64,000 bases of DNA from an uncultured Anaerovorax sp. (lineage in GTDB: Bacteria > Bacillota > Clostridia > Peptostreptococcales > Anaerovoracaceae), in contig CAZOSB010000004.1 of the NCBI GenBank assembly GCA_964582545.1, positions 3,247 through 67,246 on the forward strand. The letters are read 5' to 3'. This document shows positions 1-61,117 of the stretch, in pieces. The notes under the pieces are model-generated. The model was not told where the DNA came from. It did no database searches and saw only the letters and a list, made by a program, of their open reading frames with translations. How positions within the stretch are numbered: the first letter of the stretch is position 1; the number at the start of each line of letters is the position of its first letter. The position numbers and the translations under genes are program-made.

Positions 1-2258
1 GCATAAGTGGCCGTAATCATTTCATACTGCTCATCGTGTACTCTTATGTAATTAACCGTAGACTTATCACCGTTCAGATATCTGGCAGGTCTGTCATAAT
101 CCGTAAATAATTGGTTAACCGTCAAGTTTGCAATTTTTCCATCTTCTGCATAAAGATTGTTCACGATAATAGTCTGAGCAATTGCCGTTCCATCAATTTC
201 TACTTGGCCAGAAATTTTATATTTTCTAGCAATAGAATCATAATAGATCGCAGGTTTCATCACCCCATCTACTAAGCTAGACATCTCAAAAACATCACTG
301 TTAAAAGTGGCCTCCGAAAGGCCATCTGTGCGTTTAATTTGCAAACCATTTTTTCGGGTGATAGACACCCCGTAGTACCAACTTCCTAAACCAACTTTTG
401 ATTGTATTTGTCTAGAAAACTGACCCTTATACGGAAATTCGCTATCTATTTCATTGAAAATTGGATATCCAACATCCGCTATCATGCTAGGAGCTTTAAA
501 GCGCATTTGAATAATTTCACTTTTAAAATTAGATCCATCTGGAAGAGCAACAGAAAGCTTCGAACCAATTTCAATTCCAGGTATGATTTCCGCACCTCTG
601 CTTTCATATGGCACCGCCCTATAGCTTTGCAATTTGCCCCAGACATAATTTGTAATGGCTTGGGTTGCATATGGATTATATATCTCGTACACGCTTTCCT
701 CTTCCCCTGCTAAGAAGTAATCGCCCTCTTCAGACCAGACCATTTTTATGCCCGAATAGTTGTATGGTTCCCCTTTAATCAAATCAAAGGTTTGCTCCGC
801 TGTAATAATGTGATTACTACTAGTGTCAATAGTCCAAAGAGCTAGCTTCCCATGGTTGTTAATGTAAAATGAGCCAGCATGAGCGGAAGCAATGTGCATC
901 AGGACCTCCCGCATTGTCAACTCGTTAGGATATTCAATAAAAAAGTTTGAATTGAGTTGCACACTTTCGTCAACCTCAAACCCACATTCACTCACAATAT
1001 ACTGCAGCGCCGTTAGCATAGTCATGGGATATTCTCTGTTTTCCTTAGGCATAATAAAGAGGCGTTCTGCAAAAAGCATTTTATCAAAACACTCTACAGT
1101 AAGTACTCCTTGGCTATCTTTTCGAGTATCAATGTAAAACGTCCCTAATGGTTGCCAATGTTCCAAATTTGCTTTTACAGCAATTCTTACTTCAGCGTTT
1201 CTGGGCGGGTTAATACTAGGCTCAAAGACAACTTTACAAGCTGCCGATTGAGCCGTTCCAAGCTGAAATTTATCCCCACTAAATAGAGATCTGTTGATTT
1301 CTAAACTGTAAATATCATTTGAATTATGTTCTACCCCAGAAACAGTGATTTTATAATCGCTCTCAGGCTCTACAGATTCAAGGCTTTTTACCTGTAGGAT
1401 TACACTGTTTGATACTGACGGATTGCTTTTGCTTGATACCATTATTTGAGCAGTACCCACGTTTACCGCCTTTAATAATCCGTCTGTAACTGTGGCTATT
1501 CTTTGATTATTGCTTTGCCAAATTAAATCATGGCTAGGCACCCCTATCGGTACGATTTCAACGTTAAATTGATGAGTACTTCCCTTTTGAATTTCAGCAA
1601 TTTTGTTAATAATGGTCACTGCAGTAGCCTCAGCGGTGTATGGTTCCACTGGTGGAGTAAAGTCTGCTGTCCAGCGCTCTACATTTGAAAGCCTAAATTC
1701 ATCTATCCATTCACTATATGCGGTGCCGGATAGTTCTCCGCCCCCAATAGAAAAATTTTTTGACCCCATAGGATTGCTAACAAAAGGTGTTGTCAATGTA
1801 GTACATAACTTTCCATTAATATATATCTTAATAGAAGTTTGATTTTTCACTACAGCAATATGATACACTGTAGAAGAAATCAAGGGAATATCAGGTTGAA
1901 GTAATATTCCATAGATTGTTATATATAATTTAGATGACGAAATAATTATATCAAACAGATCTGAAATATTTGCACCTGTAGAATTTGCCATAGAACATAG
2001 TATTTTACTTGTTTCTAATGCTAGTGGTGTTTTCATCCAAAAATCAACTGTAAAACAATCTCCCAAAAACACATCTTGCACTTGCATTTTAGGGATTAAT
2101 ACACGATTAGCATTATTTGAAACAGTTAATCCTTGATTAAATTTGCTTGTTACATAACTTGGAGATGCCGATGTAACCGTCAGCGGGTTAAAACTACTGT
2201 CTGTCAAATTGCCATCAAAGTGCAACATTAGTATAGTATTTTCATCTATTCCTGCCAT
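1..2258 (-). CDS. Phage tail tip / tail-associated (Tal-like) protein with N-terminal LamG-like and Big_2-like domains. The C-terminus is outside the window.
   Basis: Absent from the supplied track because it has no stop codon in the window. Manual reverse translation from the ATG at 2258 (MAGIDENTILMLHFDGNLTDSS...) stays open to position 1, about 752 codons. It shows a LamG/concanavalin-like signature (LHFDG, FTVDFWMK, YHIAVV..IYINGKL, IDEFRLS). A Big_2-like segment follows (ATVTDGLLKAVNVGTAQIMVSS), then a tail-tip-like body. It starts 1 nt after the stop of the upstream gene. Confidence 0.75.
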   Translation of the reverse strand, partial: MAGIDENTILMLHFDGNLTDSSFNPLTVTSASPSYVTSKFNQGLTVSNNANRVLIPKMQVQDVFLGDCFTVDFWMKTPLALETSKILCSMANSTGANISDLFDIIISSSKLYITIYGILLQPDIPLISSTVYHIAVVKNQTSIKIYINGKLCTTLTTPFVSNPMGSKNFSIGGGELSGTAYSEWIDEFRLSNVERWTADFTPPVEPYTAEATAVTIINKIAEIQKGSTHQFNVEIVPIGVPSHDLIWQSNNQRIATVTDGLLKAVNVGTAQIMVSSKSNPSVSNSVILQVKSLESVEPESDYKITVSGVEHNSNDIYSLEINRSLFSGDKFQLGTAQSAACKVVFEPSINPPRNAEVRIAVKANLEHWQPLGTFYIDTRKDSQGVLTVECFDKMLFAERLFIMPKENREYPMTMLTALQYIVSECGFEVDESVQLNSNFFIEYPNELTMREVLMHIASAHAGSFYINNHGKLALWTIDTSSNHIITAEQTFDLIKGEPYNYSGIKMVWSEEGDYFLAGEEESVYEIYNPYATQAITNYVWGKLQSYRAVPYESRGAEIIPGIEIGSKLSVALPDGSNFKSEIIQMRFKAPSMIADVGYPIFNEIDSEFPYKGQFSRQIQSKVGLGSWYYGVSITRKNGLQIKRTDGLSEATFNSDVFEMSSLVDGVMKPAIYYDSIARKYKISGQVEIDGTAIAQTIIVNNLYAEDGKIANLTVNQLFTDYDRPARYLNGDKSTVNYIRVHDEQYEMITATY

Positions 2259-2259
2259 C

Positions 2260-2637
2260 TCACACCTCTACGATCTGGAAGTCAATTCCTGCCCACTGAA
2301 TCTGCCCATTGTCCAAGTTCGTCGACATATGGGTAGTAGGTACGTTATCACTGTAGCATTTCGCCACTATCAATGCCTCTCGCCTTGGACACCAATACTC
2401 CACTTGGATATATTCAGGATAAATTGCTCTTAATAGAATCTTTGTCTGCCCTTCGGTTAAAGGCTTACAGGATATGTCAATTTTATGTTTTACTCCCACT
2501 CTGTCACGGCGGTAGCTTCCGGCCAGGGTTCGGCCTGCGCCGGACCCCTCCTGATCATTTCGTGAAATTTGATATCCGCCTGCTTTTATAAACGGCGTAA
2601 AATCATTTCCATCTATTTTTAAAAACACTCTACTCAT
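2260..2637 (-). CDS. Small phage tail protein, putative minimal distal tail protein (Dit-like, N-domain size)
   Basis: 125 aa. It sits between the tape measure and tip protein genes. Its ATG overlaps the tape measure stop (ATGA at 2634-2637). The assignment is by position only. Confidence 0.45.
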   Translation of the reverse strand: MSRVFLKIDGNDFTPFIKAGGYQISRNDQEGSGAGRTLAGSYRRDRVGVKHKIDISCKPLTEGQTKILLRAIYPEYIQVEYWCPRREALIVAKCYSDNVPTTHMSTNLDNGQIQWAGIDFQIVEV

Positions 2638-4016
2638 ACGCTTAAAATTGTTCCTCCTGTCTGCCGCATGGCATTATTTTGATATTTTGTAACCACTCCG
2701 GAAAGAGTTTTTCCGTCGATAGTCAAATCTTTCTCCCGAATGGCCATGAGAATCTGTTTTAACAAAACGGTCAATTCACCATTGCCATTTTCCGTTAATA
2801 CCTGTGCCATAGCTTCTTTCATCGTGGACAAAGGAGAAACCACCTCTGTTTCTCGCTTGTTATCCCCTAAGATTGCTAAAAATTCTCGATTGGGTGGCAC
2901 TACTGCACCGGATGCCAAGGCAGGAATCTGCGGAACCTTGATTTCTCCAATCCAAGAGAAGGGCGAAAGACCTAAAATACTAACGCCTCTGATTCTTCGC
3001 AATGCCCCATTAAGCCCATCAAAAGGAACCTTGATGATTCGGTTAATTCCATTGATAATGGCATTTACTACTGTTTTTAATCCTGATAGAATCCCCTCTT
3101 GAATTCCCTGAAAGATTTGTCCTCCAGCAGAAAACACAGCCCTTACGGCCTCCCACGCAGCTGTAAACTGATCCCTGAACCAATTGGATACGTTAGAAAA
3201 TATATTTTTAATACCCTCCCAAAGTCCTTTAAATACTTCAATAACGGTTTCTACCATGCTCTTGACACCTTCAAAAAGTCCTAGCATTATCATATTCCCT
3301 ATTTCCATCATAACAGTTGAAGGGGAATGAATTCCGAAGAAGTCCTTTATGCCATTTACAAGAGGTCTAGCAACGTTTTCTATTATCCAACCATATGGAT
3401 TTGTTAAAAGGTACAGAATCCCATTCAAAAATCCCACTATGAGATCTTCACCACACGTATTAAATATGTCATACAAATGATCTGATAAATTTGATTCTTT
3501 GTTATTAAAAAAATCCGTTATTTTATTCCAATTTGAAATTATAGCGGCAATTAAAGCAATTACTCCAATTGCTATTGCTGCAAAAACAATTGGTATAAAA
3601 AGACTAAAAATAGCAATTATTCCAACAATAATCGAAATTAAAATAGAAAACGTTTCAAAAAATGATTTGTTTTCTTTATCACAATTGCATAAAGCACCAC
3701 TATATGCGGTCTGGAAGGATTCTACAGCAGTTGTCATCTCTTGGGACATTAATGTGACCGCATCCCGCATTTCAACCATTATCTGATATACGGAATTAAA
3801 GTATTGCCAATTTAATGACATCATTAGTAAAATATGTTCACTTATATTTGTAAAAACATTCATTAGTCCGTTTCCTACATCACTTACTATTGAATAAATG
3901 GTGCTGCACGTTTGCTTTATGCTTTTTTCCATATCCTTTAATTGTTTGTTTAGGTTTCCTGTAGATAAATTTACATTTAAGATTAATTCGCCTGAGCTTC
4001 CTGTTTTATTTGCCAT
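2634..4016 (-). CDS. Phage tail tape measure protein (short, about 460 aa)
   Basis: The N-terminal half looks helical. There is a central hydrophobic block (FSILISIIVGIIAIFSLFIPIVFAAIAIGVIALIAAII) and a G-rich helical C-terminal half. The position downstream of the chaperone genes is canonical. The start was moved to ATG 4016 (MANKTGSS), which follows AAAGGAGGT. The track start at 4046 overlaps the upstream gene. Confidence 0.75.
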   Translation of the reverse strand: MANKTGSSGELILNVNLSTGNLNKQLKDMEKSIKQTCSTIYSIVSDVGNGLMNVFTNISEHILLMMSLNWQYFNSVYQIMVEMRDAVTLMSQEMTTAVESFQTAYSGALCNCDKENKSFFETFSILISIIVGIIAIFSLFIPIVFAAIAIGVIALIAAIISNWNKITDFFNNKESNLSDHLYDIFNTCGEDLIVGFLNGILYLLTNPYGWIIENVARPLVNGIKDFFGIHSPSTVMMEIGNMIMLGLFEGVKSMVETVIEVFKGLWEGIKNIFSNVSNWFRDQFTAAWEAVRAVFSAGGQIFQGIQEGILSGLKTVVNAIINGINRIIKVPFDGLNGALRRIRGVSILGLSPFSWIGEIKVPQIPALASGAVVPPNREFLAILGDNKRETEVVSPLSTMKEAMAQVLTENGNGELTVLLKQILMAIREKDLTIDGKTLSGVVTKYQNNAMRQTGGTILSV

Positions 4017-4020
4017 ACAC

Positions 4021-4581
4021 TTACCTCCTTTCACCGAAAATTTCATCTATCATCTGCTGCTCTTCCTCCGATACCTTATTCTGAAGAAAAAGAATTTCCG
4101 GATGATGATCTCTAAATTCTCGTTCATGTTTTTCTAATTTTTTTCCTTTTTTGATCTTTTCCCGGATACTACAAACAAAGGAAAATTGTCCTTCCCCGAT
4201 TTCAAAGAAAGCGGAGACAAAGTCCCACCAATGGAGATATGGGATTGAGCGAATGGGTTGACCATACACTTTGCTGACGGCTGCGGTAATCATGTGAGAA
4301 TCTTGCTCCCAGTCATAAAGTTTCTTAACGTGATTTTTTGAATCCGTTTCTTGACCTAAATTTATAAACTGACACATAGCTTCCCATGCATCCTGATAAT
4401 TCTTCACACTGCCTAAATCTTCATAAAAAATGTTCATTGCCACATAAACCCGTTCATTTCCCATAAGCCCTTCAGTATTTAAACCTTGATTATTCAGGGC
4501 GGATATTGCATCCAATACCGCCCTGTAATCGCCTTTGCCGCGAATTTCACAACCATTTAAACTGATAGGTAACTCATACAT
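4021..4581 (-). CDS. Phage Gp15-like protein / tail assembly chaperone-like
   Basis: 186 aa, directly upstream of the tape measure gene. The sequence pattern (MYELPISLNG..RAVLDAISALN) recalls the Gp15 family of Firmicute siphophages, from memory. Its ATG abuts the upstream stop (TAAATG). Confidence 0.5.
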   Translation of the reverse strand: MYELPISLNGCEIRGKGDYRAVLDAISALNNQGLNTEGLMGNERVYVAMNIFYEDLGSVKNYQDAWEAMCQFINLGQETDSKNHVKKLYDWEQDSHMITAAVSKVYGQPIRSIPYLHWWDFVSAFFEIGEGQFSFVCSIREKIKKGKKLEKHEREFRDHHPEILFLQNKVSEEEQQMIDEIFGERR

Positions 4582-5031
4582 TTACTTTTCTCCCGGATGT
4601 TTCTTGTACTTTGCGGGAGTTGCTTTGTTTATTCGCTTTTGTAAGGCTTTTGCTTCTTTTTCAATGCTGTCTTCATATGCAGCCAACAGGCCTTCCACAA
4701 TCACCTCATAACGACACTTGCCCCCCAGAACATCCAACATACCTGCATTTCCTGCACAGGACTCCGATACTGGACCATCGAAGACATGATCGATCTTTTC
4801 TCTCATCTGGCTATTCAATGATTGTAAGGTAAGTGCCACTTCATTAAAATCTTCTTTCTCCGAGGCCAGACTAAGCTTTTGCGCCTCTTCTTTTAAAGAT
4901 TCCAAATCCCCAAATACTTCCTTTAATCTAACGATGACGTTAAAATCGTTGGGATCAAGTTCTACAGTGTTTCCATTGCTTAAGGTAAATGATTTTTTCC
5001 CTTTGCCAATCTGCAATATTTTTTCAGTCAT
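4582..5031 (-). CDS. Putative tail assembly chaperone
   Basis: 149 aa, acidic and apparently helical. It lies between the major tail and Gp15-like genes. A GAGGAGGG Shine-Dalgarno sequence precedes it. Assigned by position. Confidence 0.4.
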   Translation of the reverse strand: MTEKILQIGKGKKSFTLSNGNTVELDPNDFNVIVRLKEVFGDLESLKEEAQKLSLASEKEDFNEVALTLQSLNSQMREKIDHVFDGPVSESCAGNAGMLDVLGGKCRYEVIVEGLLAAYEDSIEKEAKALQKRINKATPAKYKKHPGEK

Positions 5032-5082
5032 AAATAAGTACCCTCCTCAATTTAAATCAAATGATTTCTTATGTTCTGCAAA

Positions 5083-5610
5083 TTATTCAGCCTCTGTAAA
5101 GACAGGATTCTTTAAGCTGTCTACAGTACCAAATACACGATTTCCAGAGAAATTCACCTGCATAGGCATATCCAAATAAGAGGATCCTCCTAAAGATGTA
5201 GGCGTAATGGTACAGCCCATATCATAGTGAGCGGTAGCTTTTTCTGCTTCACCTATCAATTGATAAGCTCTCATTACCGTGAAGTTTGACAGCTCGCTGT
5301 AAGCCCTTCGAAGGGTAATATCCAACAGAATTGCGTTTAATTTCTGTCCCCCTTTGAGGGTATTGGGTTCTAAGGTTTGCTGCTCTTCAAATTTGTTGAT
5401 TAAAGTTTCCGTGTAACCTAGAATATCCGTGGTGGTAGCAATATCCGCGTTGAGTTCTACTGAGCTTTCCTCAATGCCGGCCCCTAGGATTTCCCATTCT
5501 GGGATCCAATTGGTATCTTGTGGCTTTTTACCGGAAACATCCACGTAAGTGGCCATCAGTTTTCTTTCTGCTTTTTGATTCTCCATCAAGTTAAATTGTT
5601 TGTTAGACAT
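5083..5610 (-). CDS. Phage major tail protein
   Basis: 175 aa. The size, position and composition are typical of siphovirus major tail (tube) proteins. Confidence 0.6.
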   Translation of the reverse strand: MSNKQFNLMENQKAERKLMATYVDVSGKKPQDTNWIPEWEILGAGIEESSVELNADIATTTDILGYTETLINKFEEQQTLEPNTLKGGQKLNAILLDITLRRAYSELSNFTVMRAYQLIGEAEKATAHYDMGCTITPTSLGGSSYLDMPMQVNFSGNRVFGTVDSLKNPVFTEAE

Positions 5611-5672
5611 TTTTTCTTCCTTTCTCTCTTTTGTAATACAATAATTATTTTTTGTTCTTACTTCAGCAAAGC

Positions 5673-6140
5673 TTACAATGCCTTGCTGAAATCTACATAC
5701 TCTATTCGTATCTGAATAGAATACTTAGCCAGCTCCGGTGTTTTTACACTCGGTTTTGCATTTCCAAAAAGGACTTCCACCTTCTCAACCTTACAATGCT
5801 GACCAAAGTTGGGATAATTTCGGTTCTGCTCTTGAGCTTCTACCCACTGAATTAGATTTTCTACTTCGTAAAGCTTTTTCATATTTCTGGTGGGCTCCGG
5901 CTCAGCACATTCCACCGGTTGTCGCGAAATTTCCGCAAAGGAATATAAGGCTAGCGAATAGGATTTCAGTTCTGATCCATCGATAAACTGTTTTTCCTTT
6001 ATTTTGTTCGGTTTGGGTACAAACAACAGGTTTCCCGCCTGCTCTTTCCCAAAGATGGTATACAATCGCTGAATCTCGGGATTTTGTTTCAGCCACTCTA
6101 CCACTGCCTGATTGAGGTCAGGTCTTTCTTTCATATGCAT
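5673..6140 (-). CDS. Putative tail completion / tail terminator or head-tail joining family protein
   Basis: First structural gene of the module. The start was moved to ATG 6140 (MHMKERPD), preceded by GGAGGAGGG. The longer track ORF (to 6194) would read through an intrinsic terminator hairpin. Confidence 0.4.
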   Translation of the reverse strand: MHMKERPDLNQAVVEWLKQNPEIQRLYTIFGKEQAGNLLFVPKPNKIKEKQFIDGSELKSYSLALYSFAEISRQPVECAEPEPTRNMKKLYEVENLIQWVEAQEQNRNYPNFGQHCKVEKVEVLFGNAKPSVKTPELAKYSIQIRIEYVDFSKAL

Positions 6141-6170
6141 CCCTCCTCCAATATTTCTTACCATGGCCAT

Positions 6171-6200
6171 GGAAAAAGCGGTGCCACACTGCACCGCTTT
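6171..6200 (-). terminator. Rho-independent terminator in the leader of the tail module
   Basis: On the minus strand: AAAGCGGUGC-AGUGUG-GCACCGCUUU followed by UUCC. This gives a GC-rich 7-10 bp stem and a run of 5 U. It ends 31 nt upstream of the first tail gene start. Confidence 0.7.
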
Positions 6201-6334
6201 CTATGGTAAAAGTCATTTAGAATTTGCAAATTGCATCTGCCCTTTCCAGTAAGTTCTTATAACTTTCACCGATATCATCTTAGCACAGCTCTTTTGTTAC
6301 GTGTGTTTCAATATGTAGTTTTTAGAAAAATCTT

Positions 6335-6763
6335 TTATCCGCACCGTTTCTTGAAAAAACGATGAATTTTTACGCCGATTGCTTCTCTGCTGTATCCCAG
6401 CTCTTGTGCAATCTCTTGCTGAGTCATACCTCGGTAGTAATACATCCTGAGGATCGTTCTAATCTCAGAACCCTCCACGCTGTCCAACCATTCTTCCATA
6501 ATTTGCACTTGGTTGCTTAAAGACTCCAGCTTCCCTTCCAACTTCTTTCTCAACTTTCGACTCTTCTCCGGATCTACTCCTCTGATCTCAACTCTACGCT
6601 TCGTATAAGGGAATTCGCTTCTGCTTCCTGTTACGCAATCAGAAACCACCGGCAGATTTTTCAAATCTTCCTGTAAACTTCTAATTTCATATTTTACGGA
6701 ACGTAATTGCTCTAAATCTTGTCTTGTCATGATCTTGTGTATGATGTATCTGTAATTAAACAC
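6335..6763 (-). CDS. Phage late-gene regulator-like protein with a C-terminal sigma-70 region 4-type HTH
   Basis: The C-terminus (RTILRMYYYRGMTQQEIAQELGYSREAIGVKIHR) matches the sigma region 4 / RinA-ArpU-like HTH pattern. The N-terminus appears to be coiled coil. The start is either GTG 6763 (7 nt after GAGGAGGAGA) or ATG 6730. Confidence 0.55.
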   Translation of the reverse strand: MFNYRYIIHKIMTRQDLEQLRSVKYEIRSLQEDLKNLPVVSDCVTGSRSEFPYTKRRVEIRGVDPEKSRKLRKKLEGKLESLSNQVQIMEEWLDSVEGSEIRTILRMYYYRGMTQQEIAQELGYSREAIGVKIHRFFKKRCG

Positions 6764-6847
6764 ATCATAATCTCCTCCTCTTTTTTTATTTTTTCTAAGA
6801 AAATTGAATTTATTATTTATTTTTCTTAATTTCTAAGAATTTATTTA

Positions 6848-6876
6848 ATATTATTCTATAATTTTAAGATTGTCAA
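6848..6876 (-). promoter_or_regulatory. Sigma-A type promoter for the regulator/tail transcription unit
   Basis: On the minus strand: TTGACA (6876-6871), 17-nt spacer, TAATAT (6853-6848). Confidence 0.55.
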
Positions 6877-6912
6877 TTATTTTTTCTTAAATTCTTAGAA
6901 AAAATAATTGAC
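6872..6912. promoter_or_regulatory. Perfect 16-bp inverted repeat covering both divergent -35 boxes (probable operator)
   Basis: GTCAATTATTTTTTCT (6872-6887) and AGAAAAAATAATTGAC (6897-6912) are exact reverse complements with a 9-bp spacer. Three TTCTWAGAA boxes lie at 6793-6801, 6831-6839 and 6892-6900. Confidence 0.6.
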
Positions 6913-6936
6913 TTCATTTTTCATATGAGATACAAT
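6908..6936 (+). promoter_or_regulatory. Sigma-A type promoter for the XRE/ImmA-like operon
   Basis: TTGACT (6908-6913), 17-nt spacer, TACAAT (6931-6936). The start codon is 26 nt downstream, preceded by GAGGTGA. Confidence 0.6.
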
Positions 6937-6961
6937 TAAATCAGAAGAAATGAGGTGACCC

Positions 6962-7408
6962 ATGAAAAAATATATCGGTGAAACTCTGAAAGCTCAGCGA
7001 AGTAAATCCGGTATTTCTGTAAAGCAAATCTCCGACCTCCTCTCACGGGAAGGATTGAAGGCTTCAGAAAAAACCATTTATAGTTGGGAATCGGGAAACA
7101 GCCAACCCACTCCCGACGCTTTCCTGCTCATGTGCCGAACTTACGAAATAGATGATATTCTATCGACCTTTGGTTACTATTCCGAAGAAGGAAAAGGTCT
7201 ACAATCCTTGCAAGAGCGAATCTTGCTGAGAAAATACCACAGTCTAAACCAGTTAGGTCAGTCCAAGATCCATGAATATCTGGATGATCTTGTTCACTCG
7301 GGAAAATATGAAATGGCACAGGATCTTCTTATGCCCATAGCCGCCCACAACGATGACTGTTCACCGGAACAATTAGAACTGATGCGGCAGGACTTGGAGG
7401 AATTATAA
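6962..7408 (+). CDS. XRE-family (cI-like) HTH transcriptional repressor
   Basis: N-terminal HTH_3 pattern (LKAQRSKSGISVKQISDLL...EKTIYSWESGNSQP). It is divergent from the tail module. Confidence 0.8.
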   Translation: MKKYIGETLKAQRSKSGISVKQISDLLSREGLKASEKTIYSWESGNSQPTPDAFLLMCRTYEIDDILSTFGYYSEEGKGLQSLQERILLRKYHSLNQLGQSKIHEYLDDLVHSGKYEMAQDLLMPIAAHNDDCSPEQLELMRQDLEEL

Positions 7409-7427
7409 CGTTGATAAAACAAGGGGG

Positions 7428-7832
7428 ATGATTTTATTGGCAATAACGTATGAAGAATTGTTGCAAGAAGCATCAGACGAAGGGGTTCACGTTGTTGAAA
7501 AGCATTTTAAATCCAATGCGAAGGGCTTATGTAAAGGAAATAAAATTGCTGTAAACAAAAAAATTTTAACAAAGCAAGAGAAAAAATGTATTTTGGCAGA
7601 AGAAATGGGTCATTATTACACCACCGTAGGGGATATTTTGCCCCAAGACAACATTGCCCACCTGAAGCAAGAATATACGGCCAGAAAGTGGGCCTATGGT
7701 AAATTAATTCCCATAGAAGATATTTTAAATGCCATCAGCAGCGGGCACGGAGAAACCTTCAGCATGGCAGAATTTTTAGATGTGGATGAGAATTTTCTAC
7801 AAGATTGTCTCAAATATTATGGTTTTTTATAA
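7428..7832 (+). CDS. ImmA/IrrE-like (M78 metallopeptidase family) protein with a degenerate zinc motif
   Basis: 134 aa, immediately downstream of the XRE gene as in ImmR/ImmA pairs. The motif region reads LAEEMGHYY, so it is EEXXH rather than HEXXH. The start may be ATG 7428 or TTG 7437. Confidence 0.55.
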   Translation: MILLAITYEELLQEASDEGVHVVEKHFKSNAKGLCKGNKIAVNKKILTKQEKKCILAEEMGHYYTTVGDILPQDNIAHLKQEYTARKWAYGKLIPIEDILNAISSGHGETFSMAEFLDVDENFLQDCLKYYGFL

Positions 7833-7900
7833 AAAGTCTTAAAAAAACCTTTACCACATGTCCCCTTTTATGATACACTACTAACCATTACAACTTTATA

Positions 7901-7937
7901 AGACAGTTCGCAACCATCCTGTCTCAAAACAAAACTA
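7901..7937 (+). promoter_or_regulatory. preQ1-I riboswitch aptamer
   Basis: AGACAGUUCGCAACCAUCCUGUCUCAAAACAAAACUA. It has a 5-bp P1 (GACAG/CUGUC), a UUCGCAACCAUC loop and an A-rich tail. This closely resembles known preQ1-I aptamers as I recall them. It lies upstream of a YhhQ-family queuosine-precursor transporter gene. Confidence 0.7.
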
Positions 7938-8015
7938 TTATCTTTTAAAGAAGATAAGCGGGAAAAATGCTAATTACAGGTAATAAATAATTGGCATGAA
8001 TTTTTGGGTTTTTAC

Positions 8016-8043
8016 CGGGTGCGTTGCTGCGCCCGTTTTTTTT
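8016..8043 (+). terminator. Rho-independent terminator (riboswitch expression platform and/or end of the XRE-ImmA unit)
   Basis: CGGGUGCG-UUGC-UGCGCCCG (with G-U pairs) followed by UUUUUUUU. Confidence 0.6.
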
Positions 8044-8100
8044 ATTATTCCGTCATTTCCACGTTTTTTATCGCAGTGATTACAGGAGGATTAACCCGAC

Positions 8101-8799
8101 ATGACCAATGAACTTTTGCTGATTTTAAACCTTTTTTTCATTTATGGCAGCGTATTTGTCTGTTTTAAATTATTTGGAAAAAAAGGTCTATTTTGTTTTG
8201 CCGTATTGGCATCCATAGCTGCTAATATCGAGGTCTTGATCCTGGTCAACGCCTTCGGCATGGAGCAAACCCTGGGCAACATCCTCTTTGGCTCCACATT
8301 CCTTGTTACAGATATATTGAGTGAGCTTTATGGAAAGAAAACAGCTAAGGATGCTGTAAATATCAGTATTTTTACTACAATACTCTTTATTTTTATCACA
8401 CAAACTTGGTTTTTATATGCTCCTGCCCAAGAAGATGTCCTTATGGAGAGTATTCGGAACATTTTTTCAAATACACCCCGCATCATGATTGCTGGCATTT
8501 TAGTGTATGGGATCGTGCAACGGTTCGACGTGTGGCTCTATCATAAGATATGGAAAATCACTGAAGAAAAAACAGGTTCTGATAAAAGGTTTTTATGGTT
8601 GAGAAACAATGGTTCCACCCTTATCAGTCAGCTGATCAACAGTGTATTATTTACATTTGGAGCGTTTTGGGGCACCTATGATGTCAGTACACTCTTTGCA
8701 ATCGTTATGTCAAGCTATATCATCTTCATAGTTACCAGCATTGCCGATACACCCATAGTTTATCTTGTTAGGAATCACTTCAATAAAAAAGTGACCTAA
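8101..8799 (+). CDS. yhhQ: Queuosine precursor transporter (YhhQ/VUT family)
   Basis: 232-aa polytopic membrane protein with a YhhQ-like pattern (FGSTFLVTDILSELYGKK, RIMIAGILVY). A preQ1 riboswitch lies upstream. Confidence 0.75.
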   Translation: MTNELLLILNLFFIYGSVFVCFKLFGKKGLFCFAVLASIAANIEVLILVNAFGMEQTLGNILFGSTFLVTDILSELYGKKTAKDAVNISIFTTILFIFITQTWFLYAPAQEDVLMESIRNIFSNTPRIMIAGILVYGIVQRFDVWLYHKIWKITEEKTGSDKRFLWLRNNGSTLISQLINSVLFTFGAFWGTYDVSTLFAIVMSSYIIFIVTSIADTPIVYLVRNHFNKKVT

Positions 8800-8825
8800 A
8801 ACTTATATGCTTCAAGTCACTTTTT
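8786..8825 (+). terminator. Weak terminator-like hairpin after yhhQ
   Basis: AAAAAGTGAC ... GTCACTTTTT with a 20-nt loop. The U run is part of the 3' arm. Confidence 0.35.
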
Positions 8826-9041
8826 CCTATAATGTTATAAATATAAATAAAATACATAGTTTAAAGCATTCCTTATCAATTGTAGAAAGATTATTTGATA
8901 AAAAACGAGCTACATATACTGCAAGGAAGATGAGACAAAGAATGCTTTAGCTATGTAATAGTTAAAGTTTATTGATTTTAATTTAGAATAATATATAATA
9001 TGAAACAAATAACGAATTGTGAATAATTTATAAAAAATTAT

Positions 9042-9740
9042 TTAATCTGCCACATCTGCTCCGAAAATTCCCAAACATTGTTCAAAAAGTTCAAAGTTAT
9101 TTTCTTTATAAATTAAAAAATTTTGAAAGTAACCTAAGCTGTCTGCATGATACTGCCCTGAAATTTGCTGAAAAGCCAAAAGGTCATAAGTACCATCTTC
9201 ATCTACATCAACAGGAAATAGTGAGGATATGGGATCCACAAAACCTTCTATTGGCTTTTTCAACCTTCCTAGGGTATCATAGATCTGGCTTAAATACTCT
9301 CCACCCCTCTGAGAAATATCAATAATATATTTTTTATTATTATTCATACAGATCGCTTCCACCTTATAAAAATTTTTAAACGCAACCATGTATTGGAATC
9401 GTTCATTATATTCTTCTGAAGAAAATAATTTCTTTGAACGATTGTTTACAAATGAATATATGTAATCATACGTCATTCCCCCGCTTCCTCCTGAATCGAT
9501 GGTTACGAATACATCGGATACCTTGTCACCTGTAAAATCACCTAGAAACAGCCTTGGATTATATCCTCCGAATGGAAGTTCCACCACCATCACCTTTCCT
9601 GTCCTGCCATTCTTAACTACAAGTTCCATTTTATCAATATATCCACCCTCTGACTCTTTGATTCCCGTAACATACACCCTATCAAGCTTTTTGTCTCCCG
9701 TAACATCTCCGAAAGCCCATGCAACAATTTCTCTTTTCAT
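9042..9740 (-). CDS. FG-GAP/VCBS-like repeat protein (hypothetical)
   Basis: Repeated GDVTGDKKLD and GDFTGDKVSD motifs. The start was moved to ATG 9740 (MKREIV), preceded by AAGGGGTGA. Confidence 0.5.
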   Translation of the reverse strand: MKREIVAWAFGDVTGDKKLDRVYVTGIKESEGGYIDKMELVVKNGRTGKVMVVELPFGGYNPRLFLGDFTGDKVSDVFVTIDSGGSGGMTYDYIYSFVNNRSKKLFSSEEYNERFQYMVAFKNFYKVEAICMNNNKKYIIDISQRGGEYLSQIYDTLGRLKKPIEGFVDPISSLFPVDVDEDGTYDLLAFQQISGQYHADSLGYFQNFLIYKENNFELFEQCLGIFGADVAD

Positions 9741-9899
9741 TTTTATCACCCCTTTTATCAGTATATGTCGTAAGTGGAAAAAAGTACGAAAAAAGTAAGT
9801 GATTTTTTCCATGTATTTTGTTATACTATCAGTAACATAAAAATATAAAATTGGAATTTATAAACGTTCCAAAATTGTTCTTACCATCGGAGGTAAATT

Positions 9900-11873
9900 A
9901 TGAATTTGAATAAAAAATTATTGAGGACTATCATTCCAATTTTAATATTGGTTTGCTTAGCAGCAATATACTCAAAGCTATCATCCACAAACACCTACTT
10001 AAATAGGCAGGCAGAATTAGAGCTTTCTGAACGAGGTACTGCTGTATCGGCCAGCACAGATGCCTACCTTCGTAAATATATGTACATGTTAGATAACTTT
10101 GCAGAGGAAGCCTCCATCAAAGACCCCTTCGCAGATCCCAGAACCTACGAGCAATATTTGGCAGTAAGACTTCGCGATAATCCAGATATTTTAACTGTAT
10201 ATATGGCAAGTCCTACCAATGGATTTATAGATTCCACCTTATGGGTGCCCGATGCCGACTATATTCCAACACAACGTGACTGGTATATTGAAGCCGTCAA
10301 TAGCAATGAAATTGTAGTTTCCGACCCTTATATCGATGCTCAAACAGGGGATAGCATTATTTCTATTTCTAAAAAAGTAGAAAGTAATGGTGTTCTTTTA
10401 GGTGTCATGTCGTTGGATTTAACCATAAACGAATTAGTAAACTTTATAAATACCACCGTCAACGAGGATGGAACCTATTCCTTTCTTGTGGACAAAAATG
10501 GTGGAATCGTTGCCCACCCATTAGATCAATTCAAACCTCAGGGTGATAATCTCTTCAATCTATCCGAAGTGGAGAACGGACTGTATACACCTGTGGTTAA
10601 AATCATTGAAAACCATGAAGGTTTTATTAAAATGAAAGATTATGATGGTAAGGAGAGAATCTTTACTGCTCAAGGTTTGGAAGCTACCCATTGGAGCGTT
10701 ATTTCCACCTTCTCTACCGATAAGTTAAAGACAGCTTTACTCAAGGGAATGATTGGTGGAATTGCAATCTTTGTATTTGCAATCGTAGCCGTCATATTTA
10801 TGTTGGTGGTATTCTCCAAAAAATATTTTACACCTATCGTTGCCATCTCCAATGTGCTGGAAGAGGTTTCGCACGGAAATTTAAGAGTTGATACAAAACA
10901 TATTCATAATAATAGTTTTGAAATCAATAAATTACTAAATTCTCTAAACAAAACTACAAACTCCATACAGACTTATATAGAAGAAATTGATAGAATGACT
11001 GATCAGATGTCCGAAGGCGACTTTAATGTAACCACGTCTCAATCCTTTATCGGAGACTACAAGTCCATTGAAGATTCATTGATGAGACTCAGCCATGAAA
11101 TGTCCTTTACGTTGAGGCAGATTGGATCAACTGCAAGCCAAGTTTCTCAAGGTTCTGAGCAGGTATCCCATGGAGCGCAATCGCTGGCGCAGGGTGCTGC
11201 CCACCAGGCCAACTCCATCGACAATCTTTCAGAATCTGTGAATGTAATCTCTACTCAGGTGAGAGAAACAGCAGAAAACTCGGTCAAAGCCAGTCAGTTA
11301 TCCTCAGCTGCATCGGTTGCCATAACCAAGGGTAATGAGCAAATGCAAAAGCTCATGAATGCTATGAAAGATATCGATTCAAAATCTACTGAAATAAGCA
11401 AGATTATTAAAACCATCGAAGACATTGCTTTCCAGACAAACATACTGGCCTTAAATGCTGCTGTAGAAGCCGCAAGGGCTGGTGTTGCCGGAAAGGGTTT
11501 TGCCGTAGTTGCAGACGAAGTGAGAAACCTAGCTGGAAAATCTGCTGACGCTGCTAAAAACACAACTTCCTTAATCAGCGCCTCTGTCACAGCTATCTCT
11601 GACGGTGTAGGACTGGCAGATGAAACCGCTGCAGAATTAGAGGAGATCGTGAAAAGTGTAAAAGAAACCACTGATACCATCAGTGAAATTACAAATGCCA
11701 CAAGGGAGCAATCCTCCGCTTTAGCTGAAATAACCACAGGGATCAATCAAATTTCAGAGGTGGTGCAAGTCAATTCTGCCACAAGCGAGGAAAGTGCTGC
11801 TGCCAGTGAGCAGTTATCCGGTCAAGCCAATCTATTAAAAGAGTTGTTAGTAAAATTTAGATTAAGAGATTAA
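9900..11873 (+). CDS. Methyl-accepting chemotaxis protein (Cache-type sensor, HAMP, MA domain)
   Basis: Two TM segments flank a Cache-like periplasmic domain. The signalling hairpin is conserved ([39 protein letters not shown]). Confidence 0.9.
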
Positions 11874-40102: not shown

Positions 40103-40179
40103 TGGTGGGGACAACTGGATTCGAACCGGTGACCTCTTGCTTGTCGAGCAAGCGCTCTAACCAACTGAGCTATGCCCCC
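40103..40179 (-). tRNA. tRNA gene (77 nt, CCA encoded). The anticodon reads as GAC (Val), but the gene has atypical features.
   Basis: Hand-folded cloverleaf: GGGGGCA/UGUCCCC acceptor (G5-U68), GCUC/GAGC D-stem, CUUGC/GCAAG anticodon stem, loop UCGACAA and T-loop UUCGAAU. Position 33 is C, not U. T-stem pair 51-63 is C-A. Confidence 0.7.
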
Positions 40180-61041: not shown

Positions 61042-61117
61042 TGGTGGAGAATAGGGGGATCGAACCCCTGACCTCTTGACTGCCAGTCAAGCGCGCTCCC
61101 AGCTGCGCCAATTCCCC
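61042..61117 (-). tRNA. tRNA-Ala (anticodon GGC), CCA encoded
   Basis: Hand-folded: GGGGAAU/AUUCUCC acceptor with the G3-U70 Ala identity pair, anticodon loop CUGGCAG and T-loop UUCGAUC. Confidence 0.85.

Follow-up and report, generated by a model that had tools for sequence, protein, structure and literature searches.

A headless siphovirus tail cluster with its own regulatory switch and lysis genes, a possible F-type tailocin-like element, in an uncultured member of the Clostridia

The left end of a 64,000-nt stretch of DNA from an uncultured Anaerovorax sp. (contig CAZOSB010000004.1 of assembly GCA_964582545.1; the whole stretch is called the window here) carries a chromosomal element of ~10 kb and 13 genes. 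According to the listing of open reading frames (ORFs), family scans, and an extension past the left edge of the window, this element is composed of siphovirus-type tail genes, a regulatory switch, and lysis genes. Within positions 1-7832, the order along the minus strand is a transcriptional activator, a leader with a hairpin, the tail terminator, the tail tube protein, two chaperone-like proteins, the tape measure protein (TMP), a DUF6711 protein, and a hub/fiber protein; opposite to the tail operon, the plus strand carries an XRE/ImmA pair. An earlier reading of this DNA, referred to below as the original prediction, had placed a siphovirus tail module here on the minus strand, and all of its ORFs were confirmed with family matches. 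Because of these Pfam and PHROG matches, the listed ORFs can be regarded as real genes and not as chance ORFs. The tight spacing described for them was also correct, with a 4-nt overlap between the tape measure gene (2634-4016) and the ORF in the Dit position (2260-2637) and gaps of 1 nt at 2258/2260, 4 nt at 4016/4021, and 0 nt at 4581/4582; over the whole element, neighboring genes are 0-62 nt apart or, in two cases, overlap by 4 nt. The retained genes are all full length compared with their phage homologs, for 9-10 kb of coding sequence free of frameshifts, premature stops, and truncations.

The first gene of the tail operon (5673-6134, minus strand) encodes a protein of 153 amino acids (aa) that matches the "tail completion" family phrog_3266 (E value of 5e-13). 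An AlphaFold2 (AF2) model derived from nine sequences, with a predicted local distance difference test (pLDDT) score of 65.5, found its best matches in the Protein Data Bank (PDB) among 4acv (Listeria Antigen B, LmaB) and 9j1j (the monocin cap), followed by the tail terminators of cyanophage A-1(L), T5, Chi, and lambda and by the diffocin collar. Homologs with 28-36% identity sit directly upstream of the tube gene in every related complete phage. Based on these cap-fold matches and the position of the homologs before the tube gene, we assign the 153-aa protein as the tail terminator. The gene described in the original prediction as tail-completion-like is therefore present and is a tail terminator by fold, but its start is the ATG at 6134, preceded by a ribosome-binding site, GGAGGAGG, at 6142-6149, and not the GTG at 6194, which falls inside the leader hairpin.

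The next gene encodes the major tail (tube) protein (175 aa; 5083-5610, minus strand; phrog_3099, 3e-20). The PDB matches of its AF2/AlphaFold model, generated from a 27-sequence alignment (pLDDT of 71.6), are nearly all tube, Hcp, or tube-fold tail proteins, among them the NF5 tube (TM score of 0.48) and proteins of 80alpha, Bxb1, and HFTV1, with E values that are weak, about 1e-3 to 1e-2, yet consistent. Profiles of the tube, terminator, and Dit-position proteins gave no match below an E value of 0.1 when compared with all PDB chains, monocin entries included. Pfam and PHROG scans of all 13 ORFs gave no match to a sheath family and, combined with the modeled tube fold, this indicates that the element encodes a noncontractile tail. 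Two chaperone-like genes follow the tube gene. The first, a tail assembly chaperone-like protein (149 aa; 4582-5031, minus strand), matches phrog_11299 (1.2e-12) and is 52% identical to the product of the gene at the same position in L042, a related phage described below, and the second (186 aa; 4021-4581, minus strand) belongs to the Phage_Gp15 family (PF06854, 3.8e-13; phrog_706). The two chaperone-like ORFs (4021-5031, minus strand) share a reading frame, with the ATG of the second right after the stop codon of the first, and relatives have the same two-ORF layout with a gap of a few nucleotides or a slight overlap. This layout implies that the family seems to lack the usual -1 frameshift (G/GT) arrangement.

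The tape measure protein (460 aa, minus strand) matches ~25 TMP families in PHROG, with E values down to 1.5e-29, and hydropathy analysis places a hydrophobic stretch of ~50 residues at residues 117-166. In alignments, it corresponds to the C-terminal half of the longer TMPs of its relatives (650-1470 aa). The possibility that the 460-aa protein is a truncated remnant was considered and rejected as an instance of decay, as TMPs of 421-422 aa are encoded in two related phage loci of high GC content, L010 (11474-12739) and L012 (2849-4117); in other relatives the length is 620-1470 aa. Of these, L010 is a complete phage that encodes terminase, portal, and capsid, and L012 is a 9-kb contig that starts in the connector region. 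Judged from TMP lengths, tail length varies more than two-fold within the phage family.

The tail tip would be formed by the products of the next two genes. The protein in the Dit position (125 aa; 2260-2637, minus strand) matches DUF6711 (PF20458, 1.6e-10) and phrog_1194 (5.8e-20), and a word-indexed search for homologs returned only the protein itself. In 24 related phage loci, the TMP gene is likewise followed by a gene for a DUF6711 or ~130-aa protein, and in Paenibacillus phage PG1 by one for a small protein of 119 aa. The hub/fiber gene runs off the window, which holds the first 752 of its 883 codons (1-2258, minus strand), and is complete in metagenome contig L001 (L001:8597-11248). Its product matches Laminin_G_3, Big_2, and phrog_6616 ("tail protein," 3e-25) and comprises a LamG domain (residues 66-193), a Big_2 domain (211-283), a Tal-like hub (~297-690), and a C-terminal domain. 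The hub is assigned because residues 297-690 align, with 27% identity and an E value of 2e-39, to the N terminus of PG1 gp15, the gene for which comes after those for the tape measure and the 119-aa protein and thus occupies the post-Dit position. The LamG and Big_2 domains suggest carbohydrate binding. The 296-aa extension with LamG and immunoglobulin (Ig)-like domains that precedes the hub is absent in PG1 gp15 and in C. perfringens CP51 gp22, where the hub is N-terminal.

Contig L001 (14.7 kb; run SRR10912418) is 99.97% identical to window positions 1-10854 and runs 3,846 bp past the left window edge. The mismatches are at 3262 (tape measure gene), 5057 (spacer between the tube and chaperone genes), and 10844 (chemoreceptor gene), and only three differences over 10,854 bp imply that the metagenome runs hold essentially the same strain. 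The original prediction had proposed extending the sequence leftwards in search of holin and endolysin genes, and L001 indeed contains a lysis cassette and no head genes. Off the window, the 883-aa gene is followed by a 241-aa ORF after a 1-nt gap, an M23 peptidase gene (Peptidase_M23, 4.3e-21) after a 22-nt gap, and a holin gene (Phage_holin_4_1, 7.6e-29) that overlaps the peptidase gene by 4 nt. Past the holin gene lie a 185-bp spacer, a DUF6765 gene with its own terminator (L001:13240-14382, in the orientation of the tail operon; 380 aa, with weak similarity to zinc-dependent phospholipase C), and, at the left edge of the element, tRNA-Ser(GGA) (L001:14518-14605), the 3' end of which faces the element. 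No clear terminator was seen directly after the holin gene. The DUF6765 gene could be host cargo, or a moron transcribed together with the element, and the tRNA-Ser may mark an ancestral integration site, though no attachment-site (att) repeat was found, as a comparison of the two element ends gave chance-level matches only.

At the other end of the element, a 198-bp region (6764-6961), examined with motif, repeat, and promoter scans, separates the divergent activator and XRE genes. The XRE/CI-like repressor (148 aa; 6962-7408, plus strand) has an N-terminal helix-turn-helix (HTH) and no S24 peptidase/autocleavage domain, and its gene lies directly upstream of the ImmA gene, in the same direction. 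It matches phrog_3 ("transcriptional repressor," 2.5e-6) and, in Pfam, HTH_31 (E value of 6e-6; 26.9 bits against a 27-bit cutoff), HTH_19, and HTH_3, all of them just under the Pfam cutoffs. The ImmA-like metalloprotease (134 aa; 7428-7832, plus strand) matches the metalloprotease family phrog_87 (8.5e-28) and, weakly, Peptidase_M78. The classical ImmA/IrrE motif is HExxH; the motif in the 134-aa ORF is EEMGH (residues 58-62), and a relative in locus L039 has HEIGH. In a HMMER search that returned 1,134 representatives of this subfamily at an E value of 1e-3 or lower, a glutamate occupied the first motif position (EExGH) in 150 of the 150 best cluster representatives. The idea that EEMGH reflects an inactivated ImmA was rejected for this reason; such conservation implies a trait of the subfamily and not decay, and the EExGH subfamily seems to use a different first metal ligand.

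The region between the divergent genes contains three TTCTWAGAA palindromes (6793-6801, 6831-6839, and 6892-6900), which are all the matches to this motif in the 64-kb window, along with inverted and direct repeats built on it. Two promoter-like sites are also present, one leftward (6876-6848, minus strand; TTGACA-17-TAATAT) and one rightward (6908-6936, plus strand; TTGACT-17-TACAAT). Together with the XRE/ImmA pair, these putative operators look like a classic repressor/operator switch that is intact. The activator (142 aa; 6335-6763, minus strand) has a sigma-70 region 4 (Sigma70_r4, 2.9e-9) and matches phrog_36 and the Alt-like activator family phrog_2198; it also matches DUF1492 at 7.6e-4, under the Pfam cutoff, and DUF722 is among its precomputed Pfam hits. 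The Ltr superfamily of late-gene activators in Gram-positive phages comprises RinA/ArpU, LtrA (Sigma70_r4), LtrB (DUF1492), and LtrC, small proteins that are encoded just upstream of terS and are needed for transcription of the operon that extends from terS to the lysis genes (PMC3753634). The activator of the element resembles this type, specifically the Sigma70_r4/DUF1492 classes, which predicts a role in activation, and its gene is directly upstream of what is left of the late operon. Between this gene and the first tail gene is a 200-nt leader (6135-6334, minus strand), in which sequence inspection and RNA folding revealed an intrinsic-terminator-like hairpin (GCGGUGC-AGUGUG-GCACCGC followed by U5, at ~6171-6200 on the minus strand) that a simple terminator scan did not pick up. 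The leader terminator in the original prediction is therefore borne out.

On the far side of the ImmA gene, the right flank consists of a Vut_1 transporter gene, a chemoreceptor gene, MutY, threonine synthase, GltX, and other housekeeping genes. The original prediction had placed a host riboswitch locus here; this was not confirmed, as Rfam gave no match in 5600-8200 even at an E value of 1. A strong terminator-like hairpin at 8016-8035 (plus strand), with a T8 run behind it, stands 66 nt before the Vut_1 (YhhQ-type) gene and resembles a riboswitch expression platform. From the tRNA-Ser, 3.8 kb left of the window, to the housekeeping genes of the right flank, there are no capsid, portal, terminase, scaffold, replication, or integrase genes, and the reported lack of integrase, replication, packaging, and head genes thus holds for both sides of the cluster. 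Searches with tblastx in the four junction and intergenic regions detected no remnants of head genes, integrase, or other phage genes. Frameshifted or truncated genes and junction fragments, the signs of decay by which a defective prophage would be recognized, are absent. The codon usage of the element, expressed as relative synonymous codon usage, is closer to that of host genes in the window (r of 0.86) than is that of phage L042 (r of 0.73), which provides weak support for residence in this genome.

To place the cluster among its relatives, more than 60 loci related through the tube or terminator protein, from genomes and metagenomes, were clustered, mapped for marker genes of the head, and judged where at least 4 kb of upstream DNA was available. 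Every relative with this much DNA encodes a scaffold and a capsid, and a portal and terminase as well where the DNA reaches far enough. It is clear from this survey that the element in the window is the only headless member found and that the family itself is viral. As all relatives carry head genes, headlessness is a derived state specific to this element. For the tube protein, 124 homologs were found in 5.8 billion proteins, the closest, besides the protein itself, being 70, 65, 62, 60, and 56% identical. Scanning 185,579 species-representative genomes turned up 39 loci, in metagenome-assembled genomes of Clostridia and in Gemmiger, and a metagenome scan added 76 more. Relatives of the terminator are at most 36% identical and all lie inside full head-tail modules; no close relatives of it were found in metagenome and viral contig collections. 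Among the high-GC loci (L007, L009-L012, and L036), terminase, portal, and capsid genes are present in all that have enough upstream DNA.

Two of these loci, L042 (tube protein 70% identical, from the same sample as the element) and L043 (60%), show the usual structural module of a siphovirus, with terminase, portal, Phage_min_cap2, scaffold, and capsid genes upstream, along with four genes of the connector region. L042 is a complete siphovirus of 47.7 kb (SRR10912418 contig 2514), with chaperones 52-54% identical to those of the element, and may share its host with the element, as a co-resident or a competitor. A shared operator was considered and rejected, as TTCTWAGAA is absent from the available 20 kb of L042. 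More broadly, complete siphoviruses from gut and rumen Clostridia with a tube, Phage_Gp15, and DUF6711 tail module like this one, such as L042, L043, L052, and L011 (a Gemmiger formicilis prophage), encode homologous proteins in the same order as the element, with identities of 28-36% for the terminator, 36-70% for the tube, 42-54% for the chaperones, and ~27-31% for the C-terminal part of the TMP. These phages all have terminase, portal, Phage_min_cap2, scaffold, capsid, and three connector genes immediately before the terminator gene, whereas the element has only the activator and the 200-nt leader, and its Dit, hub, and fiber region also differs from theirs.

We favor, with about as much confidence as doubt, the reading that this is a self-contained F-type tailocin-like element, the particles and killing activity of which are predicted from its genes. 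As judged from its homologs, the element derives from a siphovirus family widespread in gut and rumen Clostridia. Its history would include at least two and probably three deletions, all of which left the retained genes in frame. The placement of the activator implies three losses, namely that of the integrase after ImmA, that of the early and replication genes between the operators and the activator, and that of the genes from terS to the connectors between the activator and the terminator gene. In the proposed mechanism, the XRE repressor would bind the three TTCTWAGAA operators and silence the leftward promoter until, upon a stress signal, the ImmA-type protease inactivates it, by analogy with CI/MpaR of monocin and ImmR/ImmA of ICEBs1. 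The Ltr-type activator would then be made and would drive transcription, or read-through, past the leader hairpin into what we infer to be a single operon for the terminator, tube, two chaperones, tape measure, Dit, hub/fiber protein, 241-aa protein, M23 peptidase, and holin. A tube of ~70 nm, as estimated from 460 aa at ~0.15 nm per residue, would assemble around the tape measure and be capped by the terminator, with a tip predicted to consist of a small Dit ring and the 883-aa hub protein. The LamG, Ig-like, and C-terminal domains of the latter, along with the 241-aa protein, may bind a cell-surface carbohydrate. Finally, the holin and M23 peptidase would lyse the producer and free the particles, which would bind and kill related cells, presumably via insertion of the hydrophobic segment of the tape measure into the membrane.

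The most serious alternative, to which we assign a substantial probability that stays below even, is a cryptic defective prophage remnant that lost its integrase, early genes, and head module in a few deletions and makes no killing particle; its tail and lysis genes would still be intact only because there has not been enough time for decay, or because the lysis and regulatory parts alone matter. The element is a singleton, with neither diverged sister copies nor conserved headless relatives, and all of its relatives are complete phages; by tube protein, the nearest are ordinary phages, including L042 from the same sample. The tRNA-Ser on the left border is consistent with integration there in the past, the terminator-like hairpin stands in the leader, and the function of the tail particle is a prediction from sequence. 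Set against these points, none of the coding sequence has decayed, the borders of the deletions fall exactly at module edges (between activator and terminator, between operators and activator, and after ImmA), the junctions are free of gene debris, and the switch, activator, and lysis cassette have all been kept. The lack of an att repeat argues against a very recent event, and the proteins are only 27-70% identical to those of any known phage.

Several further observations weigh against the tailocin reading. Neither the 185,579 species-representative genomes nor the metagenome set contains a sister headless element, and the element is known as a single allele (three single-nucleotide polymorphisms over 10.85 kb) found in one NCBI contig and in three runs that belong to a single study. 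A recent deletion derivative would also show no sister copies. The flanking proteins of the host occur in only one to three contigs and, with the host equally rare in databases, the lack of sister copies says little either way. The promoter scan found no consensus promoter downstream of the activator gene and, given the leader hairpin, expression of the tail operon is not assured. At the protein level, the tube and terminator models are of moderate confidence (pLDDT of 65-72; Foldseek E values of ~1e-3), the Dit and receptor-binding assignments are provisional, drawn from position and domain content only, and the 241-aa protein is an orphan for which family scans and a homolog search found no relatives.

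We regard as improbable a second alternative, in which the cluster is a tail-donor module that supplies tails to the tail-less capsids of another element in the same cell and serves DNA transfer and not killing. A complete phage of the same family, L042, is present in the same sample, the terminator, which forms the head-joining surface, is kept as the first gene, and cross-regulation between a tailocin and a co-resident phage has been documented in Listeria (PMC9043618). However, no capsid-encoding partner is present in the 64-kb window, the head-side connector genes that precede the terminator in all relatives are gone, and the operator motif is missing from the available part of L042. Retention of the cap is not peculiar to a tail donor either, as monocin and F-pyocin also keep it without joining heads (PMC11830787; bioRxiv 10.64898/2026.02.24.707460). 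An assembly artefact, in which a chimeric join in the draft contig hides the head genes, is virtually excluded, as the activator-terminator and ImmA-Vut_1 junctions recur with 99.97-100% identity in independent assemblies from three runs (L001, L002, L044, and L045).

A more specific form of the tailocin reading, which we put forward tentatively and consider rather unlikely, is that the element is a newly born functional F-type tailocin close to its origin, the only headless derivative of a large viral family with complete cousins in the same community, and unusually small, with 13 genes in ~10 kb, a ~70-nm tube, and a DUF6711 ring with one LamG/Ig-bearing hub. If this were true, the element and its cousins would offer a natural before-and-after pair for the conversion of a phage tail into a bacteriocin, and a compact chassis for engineering. 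More generally, if functional, the element would join the few Gram-positive cases known (monocin, efagin, and the C. histolyticum particle) as an F-type tailocin of independent origin, here from a low-GC, Clostridia-like organism that has been poorly sampled. Its small size and single hub/fiber protein could make it a simple scaffold to engineer, and it would support the view that bacteriocins arise repeatedly through loss of the head while the switch, late activator, tail, and lysis genes are kept. The principle, architecture, and regulation of such elements have already been described elsewhere, and the element would extend a known category and not open a new one.

Elsewhere in the window, a raiA RNA motif (RF03072; 27716-27878, minus strand) has a bit score of 138, above the gathering score of 101, and is unrelated to the element. 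The window also contains tRNA-Val(GAC) (40103-40179, minus strand) and tRNA-Ala(GGC) (61042-61117, minus strand), with no adjoining phage-like genes noted in the ORF list.

Among the closest known systems is the Listeria monocin. Like the element, it has no head genes, and the order is the same, with a metalloprotease anti-repressor and CI-like repressor, one or more activators, the cap, tube, two chaperones, TMP, Dit, hub, fibers, and lysis genes (PMC11830787, PMC9043618). The arrangement of a CI-like repressor with the MpaR protease has been shown experimentally for monocin (PMC9043618), and the XRE/ImmA switch of the original prediction, which is present, matches it in pairing a repressor devoid of autocleavage with an ImmA-like protease; by analogy, cleavage of the repressor is predicted here. 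Monocin is capped by its tail terminator protein (PMC11830787), and both it and F-pyocin retain this cap without joining heads (PMC11830787; bioRxiv 10.64898/2026.02.24.707460). The F-type architecture claimed for the cluster thus stands at the level of layout, but no sequence homology to monocin was detected in the structural proteins, with fold-level similarity for the terminator only. On sequence grounds, the element is not a member of the monocin lineage and belongs to a different phage family, one with a small DUF6711 Dit and a Phage_Gp15 chaperone. The two also differ in size (13 genes in ~10 kb for the element, 18 genes for monocin), in TMP length (460 and 622 aa), in the tip (one 883-aa hub/fiber protein and the 241-aa ORF, compared with FtbL-P), and in the lysin, which in the element is an M23 peptidase encoded before the holin. 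Furthermore, monocin is conserved in Listeria and proven to be bactericidal, whereas the element is a singleton known from genes alone.

Efagin of Enterococcus faecalis (ef1276-ef1293) is, like the element, a chromosomal, headless, monocin-like siphovirus tail cluster in the Bacillota (bioRxiv 10.64898/2025.12.13.693970). It arose independently from a local phage lineage, it is core to its species, being intact in all 2,278 high-quality draft genomes and missing from no E. faecalis genome, and its particles are made and inhibit growth (bioRxiv 10.64898/2025.12.13.693970). The likeness here is one of described layout only, and the element, a single allele, is known from its genes. The F-type tailocin of C. 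histolyticum (NCTC503_02168-02181) is a headless, noncontractile cluster in Clostridia (bioRxiv 10.64898/2026.06.17.733002), and the statement in the original prediction that only R-type particles are known in Clostridia has been overtaken by this 2026 preprint. The cluster encodes a terminator, tube, TMP, Dit, hub, receptor-binding protein, and lysis genes, and its particles were identified by electron microscopy and mass spectrometry (bioRxiv 10.64898/2026.06.17.733002). Compared by description only, it differs from the element in having a duplicated tube gene and a separate receptor-binding protein. The F-pyocins of Pseudomonas aeruginosa follow the same principle, with a lambda-like, headless, flexible tail, a cap, a TMP, chaperones, lysis genes, and repressor/activator control (bioRxiv 10.64898/2026.02.24.707460), but they represent a Gram-negative, lambda-like lineage with PrtR/PrtN regulation and central and side fibers, and they have no homology to the element. 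Elements of this kind arise independently from local phages, as exemplified by monocin, which stems from TP901-1-like phages, by efagin, which stems from a phage lineage of E. faecalis, and by rhizoviticin in the Alphaproteobacteria (PMC10811719).

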